From a bacterium (GTDB taxonomy: Bacteria; Patescibacteriota; Minisyncoccia; Minisyncoccales; UBA1441), in contig JAKQBO010000020.1 of NCBI GenBank assembly GCA_029559515.1, forward strand, positions 1 to 48,165: a stretch of DNA of 48,165 nucleotides. Reading direction: 5' to 3'. Position numbers and translations under genes: made by a program. Shown one piece after another: positions 36,706 to 43,286 of this stretch. Each line of letters begins with the position of its first letter. Position 1 is the first letter of the stretch. The notes under the pieces were generated by a model, which was not told where the DNA came from, made no database searches, and was given only the letters and a program-made list of their open reading frames with translations.

Positions 36706-37452
36706 CTAAGATTTAATTAGGCTAGAAGACTGGTCTTGGCGGACCGAATCGAGAAAAAATCGCGAAACTTTCTCCAGATTTTTTTGATCTTCTGGACTAG
36801 TCTTAATCCGGGCTAAGCAAGCTTTATCTTTTTCCGCAATTAAACGGAGAATTTTGATAGTATTAGGCGAGATCTTTTCTAAAAAATCCTCATCCTTCCG
36901 GCAGCCCGGACAGACTATTCCGTCCTGGGCAATTAAATAGCAGACTTCAGATTTAAGGTGATTTGAACAGCGGGCGCATTTTTGAAGGTCGATCTGATAG
37001 CCCCAGCTGTTCATTAGCGTCCAAAGAAAATAATAATAAAGGCGTTGATAGTGCTTCTTCATCAGATTCAGGGCATGCAGCGCCCCCAGATAGAGAAACC
37101 AAGTGTTGTCATCTGGCAGACGCCAAGGCGTTAGCGCTTCAACGTCTTGGGTCATTTTCCGAGCCACTATAAACCTCGCCCAGTCTCGGCTTAGGTTAGC
37201 AAACGGTGTTTTCGGTCGAGCCGCGGTAATAATCGGCTGGCGATAACCAAAAACCAATTCAATCTCGCTCCAGCTAAAGAGCCCTAAGCCACCCCTTAAT
37301 TTTGAAAGAATTTTTCTCTCCCCACGAGCGACAGCTTTAAGCTTGCCGAAGCGATCAGTTAATAAAATAATCTGGCTGTCGGCTTCGCTGATTGCTTGGC
37401 GGCCTAGTACCACGGCTTCCGTCTTCTCTTTAAGAAACATGATCGGGTTCAA
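36706..37452 (-). CDS. recO: DNA repair protein RecO (248 aa)
   Basis: It has an OB-fold N-terminus (EAVVLGRQAISEADSQIILLTDRFGKLKAVARG) and a Cys4 zinc finger (CARC...CPGC). Confidence 0.85.
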   Translation of the reverse strand: MNPIMFLKEKTEAVVLGRQAISEADSQIILLTDRFGKLKAVARGERKILSKLRGGLGLFSWSEIELVFGYRQPIITAARPKTPFANLSRDWARFIVARKMTQDVEALTPWRLPDDNTWFLYLGALHALNLMKKHYQRLYYYFLWTLMNSWGYQIDLQKCARCSNHLKSEVCYLIAQDGIVCPGCRKDEDFLEKISPNTIKILRLIAEKDKACLARIKTSPEDQKNLEKVSRFFLDSVRQDQSSSLIKS

Positions 37453-40400
37453 TGGCTAAAAAGAGCTTCTGGCCGTCTAAAACAACTTCTTGGCTTTCGG
37501 CCGGTGGCCGGCCCTCGGGCGATTTTAAATCAATAGCTTGATTATTTTTCTCAATCTCAGAACGATATTTTTCGAGAAGCTGAACCGGCTCTTCGGCTCC
37601 CCAATAATAGACAGTAGCCGGATCGGACGGCTTCAGGCCGGCTTTTTTTCTCAGATTCTTGATCGTCCGGACAACCTCTCTAATTTGGCCTTCTTCTTCT
37701 AAGTCTTTGCTCAACCGGGTGTCGACAGCGAGCTTTAGGCTGCCTTCTTCAGCCTGAACCCAGCCGGACTCTTCTTTAAGGCTTTCTTCAAAAGATACCC
37801 GGCGCACGTTTATCTCTTGGCTAATTAACTCATTTAAATCTTGATTTTTTAAGGCTGGACCCTGAACTCTCAGTTCGGCCAAGGGCTGCCTCACTTTTAG
37901 GCCGGCTTTAGCGCGGGCCTGCAAAGACAATCGGACAATTTCTCTGACCCGAGTCATCTCTGCTTCTATTTCTGGATTAATTAAATCTTCTTGAGGTTCA
38001 AAGTAGTCCTGTAGGTGAACCGAAATTGATTGGTTCTGGGACCTTAAAGAGCGATAAACTTTTTCACTAATAAAGGGGGTTAACGGAGCCATCAAATTGC
38101 TAATACTCAAAAGAAAGTATCGCAACATCTTGGCTGCAGTTTCTGTTTCTGGGCCCGGGTTTTGCAGGCGGGGTCGAGAGCGCCGAATATACCAATTAGA
38201 AAAATCATCGATTAGGTCTACGAAAAGACGGGCGACTCGATCGACCCGATAAGCCTCCATTTCTTGAATCAACTGTCGGCCCACCGCATGAAGACGAGAA
38301 AGCATCCATTGGTCAAGCAGGTTCGGGCTGAATGGAATTTGATCGTCCAATTCAATTTCCGGAGCATAAGTCAAATAGAACGAGGCGCAGTTATCGAAGG
38401 TGCTAATTATCTTCTGCATCACCTCGTTGACCTTGTCTTCGGCCACCACGTAGTTGCCGCCCAGCGAAGACTGATTCAGAAAATAAAAACGTAGCGCGTC
38501 AGCTCCATAACGATCAAGGATGACTTGAGGCGGTTGATAGTTCTTGACGTGCTTAGATAGTTTTTCGCCGCTCTCGGAGAGAATTAGACCGTGGGCAATA
38601 ACGTTTTTAAAGGCTGGTTGGTTTTGACCCAGGCCGTCATCTTTCAAGGTTAAGGCAGTCGCCAGAACGTGCAAAGTGTAAAACCAGCCCCGAGTTTGCT
38701 CTAAAGCTTCAGTAATAAAGTCAGCTGGAAAAAATTCTTTTGTCTGTTCCTGATTTTCAAACGGATAATGAAACTGAGCGTAGGGCATCGCGCCTGATTC
38801 GTACCAACAATCAAAAACCTCTTCGACTCTCTTCATCTTTTCTCCGGAAGGCGAATAAAATTCAATCTGGTCGATATAGGGACGATGAAAGTCAATCCGA
38901 CCCTCTTCATTGAAGGGCATTTGAGCAAATTTCAACTCTCGGACTTCAGCAAAATCAAGGCCTAATTCAGAGCGGCGGGCGGTATGCTCTTTTTCAGTTA
39001 AACCGAGACAGGCCGACTCCAAGTATCGAAGCGGACCCCGATGGCCGATAATTAAGACATTGGCTCCCTGATACTTTTGATCCTGGTCCTTTAAAAACTG
39101 ATAGATTCTCTGCCTCACAGCTAATCCGGTCTCACCACCTTCCGGGGTTCGGGTTAAGAACTCATCCGAAGAGTCAAAGAATTGGTAATATTCTTTGATC
39201 GATTTTCCGTTAGCGACACCAAATTGATGCTCACCCAGTTCCGAATAAAACCGAGGCTCAATCCCTAAAATTTCCCCAACTATTTCCGCCGTCTGCCGGG
39301 CTCGAGTTAAATTAGAAGAAAGAATAACATCGATTTTGTTCTCCTTTTTCAGCTTCTTGGCCGTAGCTAGAACCTGCTTCCGGCCCAATTCTGTTAATGG
39401 ATAGCCGTTATCGCGATCAATTAAAACTTTCTGAACATTGCTTTCAGCTTCACCGTGCCGCATCAGCCAATAGCGATTATCACTGAACTTCTGCTGCCTT
39501 AAGTCTTCACGCGAACCAATCACAACCGTCTCGCCTTTTTCTGATTGCCAGATCGGGATAGGCGCTCCCCAGTAGCGGTTTCGCGATACGGCCCAATCAC
39601 GGGCCCCCTCTAGCCATCGACCGAAACGACCGTTCTTAATATGTGCGGGAACCCAATTGATTTGCTGGTTATTCTTAACCAATTGATCGCGAAATTTTTC
39701 AACGGCGATATACCAGCTAGTAACCGGATAATAGACCAAACGTTGATCACAACGCCAACAAAAGGGATAACTGTGCTCAATTTCCAAAGTCCGGTAGAGA
39801 AACTGGCGTTTTTTAAGATCCTCTAAAATAGCCTGGTCGGCCACCCAAACCGGCTGGCCCGCCCCGGGCAAATTATAGCCGGTGGCCATACGGCCGCTGC
39901 GATCAACTGTAATCTTGAGAGGCAGATTCTGTTTCTTAGCCACCTCCATGTCCTCTAGCCCAAAGGCGGCTAGGTGAACTAAGCCGGTGCCTTCTTCTGT
40001 CGAAACAAAGTCAGTTTCCACCACTCGATAATCCCGGCCATTGCTAGGCGGAACATCATAGAGCGGTTGATAAGCCTGCCCGATCAGCTGTCGGCCTTTA
40101 AAAGTTTCAATCTGCTCAAAGTCTTCTTCAATCTCCGATAGCCGCGACTCGGCCAGAATTAAAAATTCCGAGCCGGTCTTAATTTTTACATAGTCGATTT
40201 CCGGATTAATCGCCACCGCAAAATTAGCCGGCAAAGTCCAGGGAGTAGTCGTCCAAATCAAAAGAGAGGTTTTCTCTTGATCAATCAGCGGAATTTTGAC
40301 GAAGACTGAAAGATCTTTAATGTCGCGATAGGCTCCGGGCTGATTCAGCTCAAAATTAGACAAAGGGGTCTCGCAGCGCGGACAATAGGGAGCCGTGCGG

Positions 40401-40921
40401 TAGTCCTGATAGACCAACCCCTGCTGATAAAGACGCTTAAAGATCCACCAAATGCTCTCGGTGTATTCCGGGTCAATCGTCGCGTAATAGTTGTCATAAT
40501 CAGCCCAGCGGCCTAATCTCTTCAGAATTTGCTCAAATTCATCTAAGCAACGAAAAACTAAATTACGGCAGGTCTGGTTAAATTTATCAATACCTAACTG
40601 CTCAATGTCCGCCTTGCTCTTCTGATTCAGCTCTTGTTCGGCCAAATTCTCCAGGGGTAGACCGTGGCAGTCCCAGCCCACCCGACGAGGCACATACCGG
40701 CCTCTCATTGTCTGATAACGAAGAACAACGTCTTTAATGGTTGACGGGAGAAGGTTGCCGTAATGAGGCTGGCCGGTGGCGAAGGGCGGACCATCATAAA
40801 AAGAGAATAGTGGCCGGCCTTGGCGCTGAGCAACACTCTGCTCAAAAACCCGGTTTTGCTCCCAAAACCTAAGAATCTCCTCCTCTGATTTAACAATATT
40901 ATTTTTTTCTTCTGGCATCAC
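37430..40921 (-). CDS. ileS: Isoleucyl-tRNA synthetase (type 2) with an inserted histidine-phosphatase-superfamily domain (1163 aa)
   Basis: It has PPFATGQPHYGN (HIGH), a CP1 editing region (TTTPWTLPAN), WAVSRNRYWGAPIPIW and KLSKH (KMSKS). Residues ~481-672 form an RHG...H phosphatase module. Confidence 0.95.
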   Translation of the reverse strand: MMPEEKNNIVKSEEEILRFWEQNRVFEQSVAQRQGRPLFSFYDGPPFATGQPHYGNLLPSTIKDVVLRYQTMRGRYVPRRVGWDCHGLPLENLAEQELNQKSKADIEQLGIDKFNQTCRNLVFRCLDEFEQILKRLGRWADYDNYYATIDPEYTESIWWIFKRLYQQGLVYQDYRTAPYCPRCETPLSNFELNQPGAYRDIKDLSVFVKIPLIDQEKTSLLIWTTTPWTLPANFAVAINPEIDYVKIKTGSEFLILAESRLSEIEEDFEQIETFKGRQLIGQAYQPLYDVPPSNGRDYRVVETDFVSTEEGTGLVHLAAFGLEDMEVAKKQNLPLKITVDRSGRMATGYNLPGAGQPVWVADQAILEDLKKRQFLYRTLEIEHSYPFCWRCDQRLVYYPVTSWYIAVEKFRDQLVKNNQQINWVPAHIKNGRFGRWLEGARDWAVSRNRYWGAPIPIWQSEKGETVVIGSREDLRQQKFSDNRYWLMRHGEAESNVQKVLIDRDNGYPLTELGRKQVLATAKKLKKENKIDVILSSNLTRARQTAEIVGEILGIEPRFYSELGEHQFGVANGKSIKEYYQFFDSSDEFLTRTPEGGETGLAVRQRIYQFLKDQDQKYQGANVLIIGHRGPLRYLESACLGLTEKEHTARRSELGLDFAEVRELKFAQMPFNEEGRIDFHRPYIDQIEFYSPSGEKMKRVEEVFDCWYESGAMPYAQFHYPFENQEQTKEFFPADFITEALEQTRGWFYTLHVLATALTLKDDGLGQNQPAFKNVIAHGLILSESGEKLSKHVKNYQPPQVILDRYGADALRFYFLNQSSLGGNYVVAEDKVNEVMQKIISTFDNCASFYLTYAPEIELDDQIPFSPNLLDQWMLSRLHAVGRQLIQEMEAYRVDRVARLFVDLIDDFSNWYIRRSRPRLQNPGPETETAAKMLRYFLLSISNLMAPLTPFISEKVYRSLRSQNQSISVHLQDYFEPQEDLINPEIEAEMTRVREIVRLSLQARAKAGLKVRQPLAELRVQGPALKNQDLNELISQEINVRRVSFEESLKEESGWVQAEEGSLKLAVDTRLSKDLEEEGQIREVVRTIKNLRKKAGLKPSDPATVYYWGAEEPVQLLEKYRSEIEKNNQAIDLKSPEGRPPAESQEVVLDGQKLFLAIEPDHVS

Positions 40922-42474
40922 ATTTTGTTGGGCGCACTAATGCCCATTAATTGCAAAGATTCACCAAGAATACCCTTAACCGTTGACAATAGCATTAACC
41001 GAGCTTTTTGCTTAATCGGTTCAGCATCAGCGACCGGGCAGTCTCGATAAAATTGATGGAGGGCTGAAGCTAGCTGGCTAGAAAACTGAGGCAGCTTATG
41101 AACTTCATAGCTCTCGGCGATACTGGTCACCGTCTCCGGATAATGAAGCAATGTTGCCATCAGCGAAAGTTCACTGGGATGATCAAGTAAAGCCTCCGGG
41201 TTGCCTGTTCGCTCGGGGGAATAATTCAGTTTCTCGAAAATACTATTGATCCGAGCGTGAGCATATTGAATATAATAAACTGGATTATCTGATGATCTTT
41301 TCACTGCTAAATTAAAATCAAAGTTAAGATGGGAATTGAGGCTCCGTTCCAAAAAGAAGTAGCGGACGGCATCTAGGCCAACCTGGTCAACCAATTCAGC
41401 AATCGTGATATAAGCGCCTCGTCTTTTAGAGATACGCAGTTCTTGACCGTCTTTTAGCACCTTAACCCACTGAGCAATTAAAATTTTCAGCTGGTGGGCC
41501 GGATAATCAAGAGCCTTCAGCCCCTGAACCAGTGGCTGAATATGGCCCTGGTGATCAGCTCCCCAGATATCAATGATTAAATCAAAGCCTCGGTCAAATT
41601 TATTCCGATGATAAGCCAGGTCGGTCATGAGATAAGTCATCTCACCGCTCGCTTTGACCAAAACCCTGTCCTTATCGTCTCCAAAAGAAGTTGTTTTCAG
41701 CCAAAGAGCTCCTTCTTTTTCCTCAGTTAAGCCCCTCTCTTTAAGCTTAGCTAAGGTAGCCTCAACTTCCTTTTTTCGATAGAGTTCTCTCTCTGAAAAC
41801 CAGGTATCAAATTTCAGGCCAATTTTCTTTACATCCGGCTTGATCATTTTCTCCAAGATATGGTCGGCGGCTTCGCGGCCGGCTTCGTCCGGATCCCGGC
41901 TTTTAACAATCTTTTTTAACTCTTCGATATAATCACCTCGATAGGTCGCCTCGGGATGACCCAAGACTGATTCGCCTAAGCGTCGAACCTGAAAGCCGGC
42001 ATCATTAACGTAATACTCTTTGACAACTTGGTGGCCGACCCGGGCGAGGACGTTGCCCAGGACATCTCCAAAAAAACCACCCCGGCCGTTACCCAGCGTT
42101 AAGGGGCCGGTTGGATTAGCCGAAACAAACTCAACCTGAATTTTCTTAACCTGATCGACTGTTATCTGCCGATCAAGACCAGACATTAGGTTCTGCCATT
42201 CTTGATTAAGCTGTTCGGCTGTTAAAAAAAAGTTAATGAAGCCCGGCTTAGCTATTTTAGCTTGATAGCCCTCGATTCTTTTGGCTAGCTCAGCGGCTAG
42301 CTTCATCGGATCAGATTTCATTGGCCGAGCTAAAACCATCGCCGTGTTAACTGCATAATGGCCGTGCTCAGGTTGATCGGGCACATAAATCTGCCAGTCT
42401 TGATCCGGCCAGCCTAATTCGCCTAGAACGCGATTAACCTCTGCTTTGATTTTTTGGGCGACTGTCTTTTCCAT
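40918..42474 (-). CDS. argS: Arginyl-tRNA synthetase (518 aa from ATG 42474)
   Basis: It has SANPTGPLTLGNGRGG and a DALR anticodon-binding C-terminus ending ...M. The TTG at 42516 used by the ORF track lies upstream of the predicted -10 element. Confidence 0.9.
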   Translation of the reverse strand: MEKTVAQKIKAEVNRVLGELGWPDQDWQIYVPDQPEHGHYAVNTAMVLARPMKSDPMKLAAELAKRIEGYQAKIAKPGFINFFLTAEQLNQEWQNLMSGLDRQITVDQVKKIQVEFVSANPTGPLTLGNGRGGFFGDVLGNVLARVGHQVVKEYYVNDAGFQVRRLGESVLGHPEATYRGDYIEELKKIVKSRDPDEAGREAADHILEKMIKPDVKKIGLKFDTWFSERELYRKKEVEATLAKLKERGLTEEKEGALWLKTTSFGDDKDRVLVKASGEMTYLMTDLAYHRNKFDRGFDLIIDIWGADHQGHIQPLVQGLKALDYPAHQLKILIAQWVKVLKDGQELRISKRRGAYITIAELVDQVGLDAVRYFFLERSLNSHLNFDFNLAVKRSSDNPVYYIQYAHARINSIFEKLNYSPERTGNPEALLDHPSELSLMATLLHYPETVTSIAESYEVHKLPQFSSQLASALHQFYRDCPVADAEPIKQKARLMLLSTVKGILGESLQLMGISAPNKM

Positions 42475-42487
42475 AATTGAATGACCA

Positions 42488-42496
42488 ATTCTAGCA
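42488..42496 (-). promoter_or_regulatory. Extended -10 promoter TGcTAGAAT, 13 nt upstream of the argS ATG
   Basis: The minus strand reads TGCTAGAAT (42496-42488). The ATG is at 42474. Confidence 0.45.
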
Positions 42497-42519
42497 TTTT
42501 CGCTAGAAACTGACAAAAA

Positions 42520-42535: not shown

Positions 42536-42982
42536 ATGGAATTAGCTAATAATAAAAAGGCATTTTTTGATTATGAAATTCTAGAGAAAATAGAGGCTGG
42601 TTTGGCTTTAACCGGAGCTGAGGTTAAATCAGCCAAGCTGGGCCGCGTTAGTCTAAAAGGCTCTTATGTTAGCAATCTCGGAAATCGTCTTTATTTAACC
42701 GGAGCGACTATCTCAGCCTATCAACCGGCCAACCAGCCGGCCGACTACGATGCCACCCGCCCCCGCCCCTTGCTATTTAAAAAAAAGGAGATAAGCTACT
42801 TGATTGGCAAGATAAAAGAAAGGGGCTTGACGCTAGTGCCTTTAAGAATGTATACTAAAAAGAACTTGATCAAGCTAGAGGTTGGTCTGGCTAAAGGAAA
42901 AAAGAAATTTGATAAACGCCAACAGATCAAGCAACGTGAAGATGAGCGCCGGATTAGAAGATCTTTAAAAGGCGAAGAATAA
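42536..42982 (+). CDS. smpB: SsrA-binding protein SmpB (148 aa)
   Basis: It has a typical SmpB sequence with a basic C-terminal tail. It lies immediately upstream of the tmRNA gene. Confidence 0.95.
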   Translation: MELANNKKAFFDYEILEKIEAGLALTGAEVKSAKLGRVSLKGSYVSNLGNRLYLTGATISAYQPANQPADYDATRPRPLLFKKKEISYLIGKIKERGLTLVPLRMYTKKNLIKLEVGLAKGKKKFDKRQQIKQREDERRIRRSLKGEE

Positions 42983-42985
42983 CAC

Positions 42986-43278
42986 GGGGACGAACGGCTT
43001 CGATAGAATCTCGAGGCGCGCGGTGCGGGTTAAGGTGCCGGATCCTTATTAAACTTTCGGCAAACTACAAGTGTCAACACACTTCGGGGTTTAACCCCCG
43101 CCTACGCTTACGCCTGAAAGTTTCAGGATAAGCTTTCATAGTTTTTTTGCCTCCCTTTGCGGAGGAATCTGTTTCTGAAGCGCCCTAAACGCTTCTTGAA
43201 GACCCTCTTGAGGGCTAAGCCCGTAGATGCTGCTCGTCATTGATTTTCTAGACGTGGGTTCGATTCCCACCGTCTCCA
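42986..43278 (+). ncRNA. ssrA: tmRNA (SsrA), short form ~293 nt
   Basis: The 5-prime GGGGACG pairs with the 3-prime CGTCTCC and includes the G3.U70 Ala identity pair. The T-arm is GTGGG-TTCGATT-CCCAC with discriminator A. CCA is not encoded. It lies 3 nt after the smpB stop. Confidence 0.85.
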
Positions 43279-43286
43279 CTTTTACA

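Follow-up and report, generated by a model that had tools for sequence, protein, structure and literature searches.

A predicted histidine phosphatase nested in connective peptide 3 of isoleucyl-tRNA synthetase in Patescibacteria

The ileS gene and its nested domain

The window analysed here, a stretch of 48,165 nt from a member of the Patescibacteriota (contig JAKQBO010000020.1, assembly GCA_029559515.1), carries on its reverse strand ileS (37430..40921, −), the gene for a type-2 (eukaryote-like) isoleucyl-tRNA synthetase (IleRS), and nested within the coding sequence of this gene is a histidine-phosphatase domain. The open reading frame (ORF) is unbroken over 1,163 codons counted from a GTG start, and no ORF of 80 or more amino acids lies on the opposite strand of ileS. 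Pfam resolved the 1,163-aa protein into tRNA-synt_1 (in two stretches), His_Phos_1, Anticodon_1 (residues 870–1014) and DUF5915 (residues 1047–1158), and the NCBIfam equivalog model for ileS, TIGR00392, matched with 825.8 bits against a cutoff of 621.4, the insert notwithstanding. Because the nearest solved structures are human cytoplasmic IleRS (729 bits), T. thermophilus IleRS (694 bits) and P. megaterium IleRS2, the host was identified as a type-2 enzyme. It retains a normal editing domain in connective peptide 1 (CP1), with the motif WTTTPWT (residues 223–229) invariant across the alignment, as well as connective peptide 2 (CP2). The KMSKS motif reads KLSKH (residues 787–791) and the HIGH motif reads HYGN (residues 53–56; 40754–40765, −), its fourth His being replaced by Asn; HYGN is common to the closest relatives (P0001–P0008) and occurs in 12 of the 121 aligned sequences, the remainder having HYGH.

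The nested segment, consisting of the phosphatase domain and a C-terminal strand and linker that lead back into connective peptide 3 (CP3), was delimited by alignments and AlphaFold2 (AF2) modelling to residues 477–675 (199 aa; 38897..39493, −). The initial annotation of this DNA had placed a histidine phosphatase at residues 481–672 (38906–39481), boundaries that were essentially right and needed only this refinement. When the interval 470–690 was aligned to the 120 best homolog clusters, its length proved bimodal, with 20–33 residues in 39 clusters and 210–232 in the other 81. In the alignment to human IleRS, residue 476 corresponds to human residue 490 and residue 676 to human residue 497, such that approximately 199 residues occupy the place of six in the human enzyme. 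The junctions read ...REDLRQ/QKFSDN... and ...NEEGR/IDFHRP..., and the GC content of the insert is indistinct from that of its flanks.

As had been proposed, the WGAPIPIW block precedes the insert and another conserved block follows it, in a region that corresponds to CP3, defined in yeast IleRS as residues 459–526 (PMC7955072). In the yeast enzyme, CP3 is preceded by a linker (residues 453–465) that lines the binding pocket of reveromycin and the tRNA CCA end (PMC7955072); its counterpart here is the CP2–CP3 linker at residues 440–452 (39566..39604, −), and the insert begins 25 residues downstream of it. Insert-less relatives have only approximately 25 residues at this site, and the segment is therefore no normal connective peptide of type-2 IleRS. 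In the full-length AF2 model (pLDDT 90.6, pTM 0.84), segment 477–675 scored 86–97 and its two linkers 93–95; the values for the linkers suggest that the predicted domain would be held on IleRS in a fixed rather than floppy orientation.

A domain search, set beforehand as a check that could refute the assignment, placed the segment among the histidine phosphatases: residues 485–647 (38981..39469, −) matched Pfam His_Phos_1 (PF00300) over profile positions 2–167 of 194, with E=3.7e-33 and 115.3 bits against a gathering cutoff of 21.7. Modelled alone, the insert reached a pLDDT of 93.8, and the top Foldseek matches of the model were GpgP Rv2419c, TIGAR, PspA, PhoE, the riboflavin-pathway HFP and CobC, at TM-scores of 0.74–0.79 and approximately 25% identity, with E values down to 7e-15 and a probability of 1.00 to GpgP, PspA and PhoE. 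A sequence search of the PDB with the insert returned the same families. The claim that a complete histidine phosphatase, of branch 1, interrupts a type-2 IleRS is thus borne out by the Pfam, TIGR00392 and PDB matches and by the predicted fold.

All specific NCBIfam models for the insert, namely dPGM, GpmB, CobC, PspA, SixA and the RNase H/acid phosphatase model, stayed below their cutoffs. Among the dPGM-type models, dPGM_arch reached 90.4 bits (cutoff 225), TIGR01258 21.3 (81.7) and GpmB 55.5 (261); CobC TIGR03162 reached 79.3 (162.9), PspA 45.1 (350) and SixA 44.4 (74.5). A true dPGM, CobC, PspA or SixA was rejected on these grounds. The domain is a member of the branch-1 superfamily outside any characterised subfamily, and 'mutase-like' describes its fold only. 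Two clade-specific features mark it, N-x-Y ahead of the RHG motif and a GExREL strand at the C-terminal end, and its charge varies widely among copies, from pI 4.9 to 10.2 and from −11 to +23 net. The insert (38888–39496, −) also matched the phage family phrog_12933, of unassigned function, with E=2e-26. Related histidine phosphatases are therefore also phage-encoded; as a clue to function the match was rejected, as it says nothing on function. No PADLOC defence model matched the insert or two standalone homologs.

The initial annotation had listed an RHG motif, a second Arg, a Glu and a distal His, all of which are present, and the motifs it quoted are correct. The RHG motif with its nucleophilic His is R488-H489-G490 (39452..39460, −; coordinates verified), of which R488 and H489 are found in all 82 insert-bearing clusters and G490 in 71. 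R540 (39302..39304, −), the second phosphate-binding Arg within the motif S536-x3-R540-x3-T544-A545, is kept in 81 of 82 clusters; position 564 (E564, the predicted general acid; 39230..39232, −) is always acidic (Glu in 54, Asp in 28); and H627, the distal catalytic His (39041..39043, −), is again present in 82 of 82. The invariant set across these clusters comprises R488, H489, S536, G568, E597, R605 and H627, at a mean insert identity of 38%, and the signature RHR(E/D)ERH is retained in approximately 150 further copies, be they at the first site, at a second site described below, in tandem or standalone. Within the 96–99.9% identical cluster of the window protein, the density of variable sites is 0.055 in the insert vs 0.044–0.055 elsewhere in the protein, and the catalytic residues are free of variable sites. 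Such conservation is the pattern expected of an enzyme held active by selection, an activity that is here predicted from sequence. The notion of a catalytically dead connective peptide was rejected on the same conservation.

Distribution and allelic exchange of the insert

Eleven proteins, each on a contig of its own and drawn from four sources (NCBI, ENA, JGI and Logan), make up the 90%-identity cluster of the window protein. PF00300 is present in 81 of the 120 best homolog clusters (1,120–1,196 aa; 43–100% identical to the query) and absent from the remaining 39 (940–1,024 aa), which answers the proposed survey of relatives for the insert. Records of the PF00300-bearing homologs are labelled Parcubacteria, Paceibacterota, Colwellbacteria or 'Patescibacteria group', and the species-representative genomes of the window's clade, two of which were found with a four-sequence alignment of the insert, are metagenome-assembled genomes of Patescibacteria. 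A contig scan with the single protein, based on non-conserved 8-mers, returned only unrelated standalone phosphatases of Firmicutes. When 1.84 billion representatives were searched with the insert only, 984 matches fell below 1e-10; the best 150 of these included 148 new representatives at the 50% level, of which 92 were IleRS-associated. Overall, the nested architecture was found in at least 170 homolog clusters. A misassembly or chimera, which the initial annotation had named as a possible refutation, was rejected on the 11 contigs from four sources and the hundreds of homologs.

In public annotation these proteins appear only as 'class I tRNA ligase family protein' (PGAP) or 'isoleucyl-tRNA synthetase'. 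One member of the 90% cluster, HQO27505.1 in the cluster of P0001, was deposited as 'Candidatus Pacearchaeota archaeon'. This label is doubtful because the locus is bacterial (tmRNA, SmpB and RecO) and the relatives are Patescibacteria, and it is probably a binning or taxonomy error.

In insert-less relatives, CP3 at this place forms a CxxC...CxC zinc knuckle. The initial annotation had taken the Cys pairs to be replaced by the new domain, which holds for the window protein and its clade, where all four CP3 cysteines are lost (22 clusters), and does not hold for the majority of relatives, as 59 of the 82 insert-bearing clusters keep the Cys pairs on either side of the insert. The insert therefore sits within the zinc knuckle rather than replacing it: in the Cys-keeping relatives the phosphatase is spliced into the tip of the CP3 zinc-knuckle hairpin. 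In the window protein, the N-terminal half of the hairpin, delimited by alignment and by the CP3 definition, spans residues 453–476 (39494..39565, −) and has lost the first CxxC pair of most relatives, and the C-terminal half, from the alignment, spans residues 676–705 (38807..38896, −) and has lost the second pair. The insert is polymorphic in the clades that keep the CP3 cysteines. All 22 Cys-less clusters bear it, with no insert-less member seen in the window's clade, and this suggests structural entrenchment: the insert would have taken over the structural role of the zinc knuckle in that clade and is probably entrenched there.

A neighbour-joining tree of the IleRS core (121 sequences, CP3 excluded) required at least ten changes of insert state. 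One contrast is between P0025, with the insert, and P0094, without it, proteins that are 96–98% identical outside CP3 and whose loci share gene order and 97.8% DNA identity over 10.3 kb. The two alleles are identical through TGGCAGTGTCAAAAATGCGG, after which 21 of 45 positions differ; this 45-nt divergent tract is followed by a 594-nt indel and then by 28 differences in 66 nt, before identity resumes at GAGGTTTTTGATTGTTGG and holds for approximately 660 nt. The same 594-nt indel separates a second, independent pair (P0027 with and P0089 without the insert), whose flanks are 63–64% identical vs a background of 89–90%. Within a mixed subclade, flank divergence is 0.45 between states vs 0.26 within a state at equal core divergence, and the P0094 flanks are 84% identical to those of insert-less proteins with 80–85% identical cores and only 63% identical to those of its own 98% sister. 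Flank sequence thus follows the insert state, not the core phylogeny.

The simplest reading of these tracts is that the CP3 hairpin, with or without the phosphatase, is swapped whole by homologous recombination between related lineages; the crossovers would fall in the conserved WGxPIPIW and EVFDCWFESG codons that flank the CP3 cassette. No phosphatase gene lies beside ileS at either insert-less locus (P0094 and P0089), and IleRS therefore works without the domain. The same 97.8%-identical loci, compared over L012:6001-7295 with L014, are also mosaic in the 5′ half of ileS outside the cassette: patches at 87–94% identity, among them L012 6519-6608, are interspersed with stretches of 98–100%, and the 3′ half has four differences in 1.3 kb. 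This mosaic suggests further recombination tracts within ileS.

An insertion of the intein or transposon type was rejected, as no Hint domain, splice-junction residues or bracketing repeats were found; a search for repeats around the insert gave only short chance matches.

Standalone, tandem and second-site copies

In the window, ileS lies between argS, the gene for ArgRS, directly upstream (40918..42516, −), and a recO-like gene directly downstream that overlaps ileS (36706..37452, −); both were assigned from their ORFs and from the loci of relatives, in which they form part of a conserved synteny. The start of ileS reads GTGATG, a GTG with an immediate ATG, and overlaps the ArgRS stop codon. 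The true start is probably the ATG at 40918, which gives 1,162 aa as in the database twin P0001. Divergent from the argS–ileS–recO operon are a SmpB-sized ORF (148 aa) and, directly after it, a tmRNA gene (Rfam RF00023, 90.6 bits; 42986–43281, +), the pair spanning 42536–43281 (+). The order SmpB, ArgRS, IleRS, RecO and DUF7619 is kept in all related loci examined.

The closest standalone homologs of the domain are approximately 190 aa long, 35–45% identical to it and share its N-x-Y..RHG start and GExREL terminal strand. In six of the seven single-domain standalone homologs tested, the gene lies directly upstream of an insert-less ileS, and in four of those six ArgRS is upstream in turn, such that the standalone phosphatase gene sits between argS and ileS. 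The spacing between phosphatase gene and ileS ranges from a gap of approximately 120 nt to an overlap of 13 nt, the four ArgRS-adjacent genes lying within 2 nt of ileS. Downstream of these pairs, where the contig extends, RecO and DUF7619 follow, as in the window. The IleRS encoded downstream of one standalone homolog (P0133; L015:1103-1471, +) has GVHH in place of HIGH, a non-canonical motif that has been linked to mupirocin hyper-resistance in IleRS2 (PMC10485003). The partnership of phosphatase and ileS therefore spans both the HxGH and the GxHH lineages of IleRS2.

Copy number and position vary further. Four IleRS proteins (P0159, P0181, P0231 and P0265) have two tandem copies in CP3, and P0121 (1,161 aa), which ends at a contig end, joins the N-terminal part of IleRS to four tandem His_Phos domains, with the full catalytic signature in all three complete copies. 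In P0122, P0238 and P0197 an additional copy occupies a second site, after the stem-contact fold and before the helix that opens the anticodon-binding domain; by alignment of the relatives this site falls in the loop at residues 853–867 of the window protein (38321..38365, −), which is empty here. Among the 150 best domain matches, IleRS was the only long host protein, the remainder being standalone single or tandem-double proteins.

A composite of a different kind is P0228 (1,066 aa), an IleRS-like protein whose editing domain contains a segment of approximately 175 aa matching IS200-type Y1 transposase, whose CP3 bears a His_Phos domain and in which a GNAT acetyltransferase domain takes the place of all sequence past the HxPFEN motif. 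P0228 could be a degenerate paralog or, alternatively, a sign that IleRS is a hot spot of domain capture in these bacteria.

Taken together, though short of proof, the neighbour gene, the two nested sites and the amplification amount to the classic fusion-and-neighbourhood signal of a functional partnership. Among relatives, the phosphatase lineage is found in five states: a gene between argS and ileS, a single CP3 insert as in the window, two to four tandem copies, an extra copy before the anticodon domain, and none at this locus.

Possible function, precedents and implications

The architecture, the residue conservation, the gene linkage, the polymorphism and the recombination tracts are established by observation. 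We consider it likely that residues 477–675 form a folded branch-1 phosphomonoesterase, predicted to be catalytically competent, nested in CP3 of a working type-2 IleRS as an accessory partner that would act outside the aminoacylation machinery. Enzymatic activity, substrate class and any coupling to the function of IleRS are what we infer beyond the observations. In the putative reaction, H489 would be transiently phosphorylated, R488, R540 and H627 would hold the phosphate and E564 would serve as the general acid. We would guess that the substrate is a small phosphomonoester, either a metabolite or a nucleotide, that is handled alongside IleRS; a tRNA end or a phosphoprotein seems less likely. 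This preference for a small molecule follows from the fold relatives, from the functional-looking free-standing forms and from a charge that is not consistently RNA-friendly. The wider list of candidate substrates in the initial annotation stays speculative.

Several points weigh against the accessory-partner explanation. All equivalog scores are below cutoff, and therefore no function can be transferred from those families. The insert-less relatives were drawn from the top matches to an insert-bearing query and are a biased sample. The comparison of flanks and cores sets no direction, gain or loss, for the cassette exchanges, and the neighbour-joining tree of the domain, with approximately 180 columns and distances of 0.5–1.4, is too shallow to order standalone and nested forms; in its sample, some short 'standalone' proteins are probably contig-truncated fusions. 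One standalone homolog is found in a context of sugar metabolism, next to a ROK kinase and close to GlmS and a HAD hydrolase. Adjacency and fusion, finally, could reflect co-expression only, or local gene shuffling.

In a possible, clearly less favoured alternative, a housekeeping or metabolic phosphatase unrelated to IleRS function was captured from next door into a permissive loop and kept for co-expression only, with no biochemical link to aminoacylation. It overlaps with the accessory-partner explanation in all but the coupling. Both insertion sites are variable surface loops, the insert-less alleles in 96–98% identical proteins indicate that the domain is not needed by IleRS, and the sugar-metabolism neighbourhood, the tandem-double standalone proteins located away from ileS and the metabolic phosphatases among the fold relatives all fit a metabolic enzyme. 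The independent occupation of two loops, the adjacency to ileS and the repeated amplification, however, exceed what chance co-location would give, and the 150 best matches from the library of 1.84 billion proteins included no other long host than IleRS.

Improbable, in our view, is that the phosphatase has its target within the IleRS system, either tRNA-Ile ends or IleRS, and works as a cis-acting repair or counter-defence module; in one version, it would dephosphorylate IleRS after attack by a toxin kinase. Three genetic formats and two insertion sites link the domain specifically to IleRS; the first site lies 25 residues past the CCA-pocket linker, the copy number of the domain rises to four, and its presence turns over between near-identical genomes, as is typical of conflict-related accessory functions. 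Some members of the superfamily are protein phosphatases (SixA, PGAM5 and Sts-1), and SixA is among the weak NCBIfam matches of the insert. The nearest solved folds, however, are all small-molecule phosphatases, a spread of charge as wide as that seen among the copies is unexpected for an RNA-binding module, no PADLOC defence family was matched, and tRNA-end repair would not obviously be confined to one synthetase. We also know of no histidine phosphatase that acts on RNA ends. Quite improbable is the more specific proposal of a cis-acting protective module that would strip a phosphate or pyrophosphate, placed there by a toxin or phage effector, from the tRNA-Ile 3′ end or from IleRS, or would destroy a phosphorylated inhibitor directed at IleRS. 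The idea that the segment is a catalytically dead spacer, or that assembly or gene calling created it, can practically be dismissed, given the 11 contigs from four sources in one 90%-identity cluster, the architecture shared by 81 of the 120 best clusters and 92 further representatives at the 50% level, the conserved catalytic residues, the continuous frame and a fold predicted with high confidence.

With the small-molecule phosphatases of branch 1, namely GpgP (4pz9, 6s2q), PspA (4ij5), PhoE/YhfR (1h2e), CobC (6nru), TIGAR (3dcy, 3e9c) and the riboflavin-pathway HFP (9mmh), the domain shares the fold, the Arg-His-Arg-Glu-His set, a length of approximately 190–200 aa and a short cap region. 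It differs from them in its low identity (approximately 25%) and sub-cutoff scores, in being nested here rather than free-standing, and in its N-x-Y and GExREL features. Its best NCBIfam match is PRK07238, the bifunctional RNase H/acid phosphatase of the mycobacterial Rv2228c type (91.7 bits over positions 179–342), in which a CobC-like histidine phosphatase is likewise joined to a nucleic-acid enzyme; there, however, the fusion is end to end and the partner enzyme is another, and the score falls far short of the cutoff of 326.

Few enzymes are as conserved as aminoacyl-tRNA synthetases, whose cores rarely acquire new catalytic domains; the textbook case is the editing domain in CP1. Like the connective peptides of class Ia enzymes (CP1 of IleRS, ValRS and LeuRS; CP2 and CP3), the phosphatase is a folded hydrolytic domain set into the Rossmann fold by a two-strand connection. 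Whereas CP1 is universal and ancient and acts on misacylated tRNA, the phosphatase belongs to an unrelated superfamily and is found only in some Patescibacteria, where IleRS can do without it, its copy number differs from protein to protein and lineages exchange it. That an IleRS can bear an additional enzyme domain has a curated precedent in NCBIfam NF040702, 'ileS_w_GNAT', in which that domain is an N-acetyltransferase; this is another enzyme superfamily, and the window protein, which lacks a GNAT domain, reaches 268 bits on that model (cutoff 1999). P0228, by joining His_Phos and GNAT in one IleRS-like protein, bears a likeness to NF040702. Like inteins and mobile insertions, the phosphatase occurs sporadically at one precise site of a conserved essential gene and moves with short flanking tracts, but unlike inteins it has no Hint domain, no Cys/Ser/Thr or His-Asn junction residues, no endonuclease and no junction repeats that we could find, and it stays in the mature protein.

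In the literature, we found no description of a histidine phosphatase in IleRS or of its neighbour-gene, second-site or multi-copy variants, and nothing relevant on comparable architectures of a synthetase with a phosphatase or with GNAT; the word 'phosphatase' does not occur in the main text of the AARS Online paper. This agrees with the initial annotation, which knew of no described IleRS of such architecture, although the proteins themselves are abundant in public databases. The evidence points to an undescribed accessory partnership of a CP3-borne histidine phosphatase with IleRS, in sequences that are public, abundant and unremarked. Automated annotation currently gives these essential enzymes no more than the generic label 'class I tRNA ligase family protein'.

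CP3 of IleRS can thus harbour a second hydrolase, unrelated to that of CP1, with the full series from neighbour gene through nested domain to multi-copy array, a clear example of how a single partnership can take either form, neighbouring gene or nested domain. In Patescibacteria, part of an essential gene can act as an exchangeable cassette, and alleles with and without the insert at 96–98% identity offer a natural experiment on the role of the phosphatase in isoleucine charging. If the protective-module proposal were true, the gain, loss and amplification of the cassette would be the footprint of an arms race inside an aminoacyl-tRNA synthetase.

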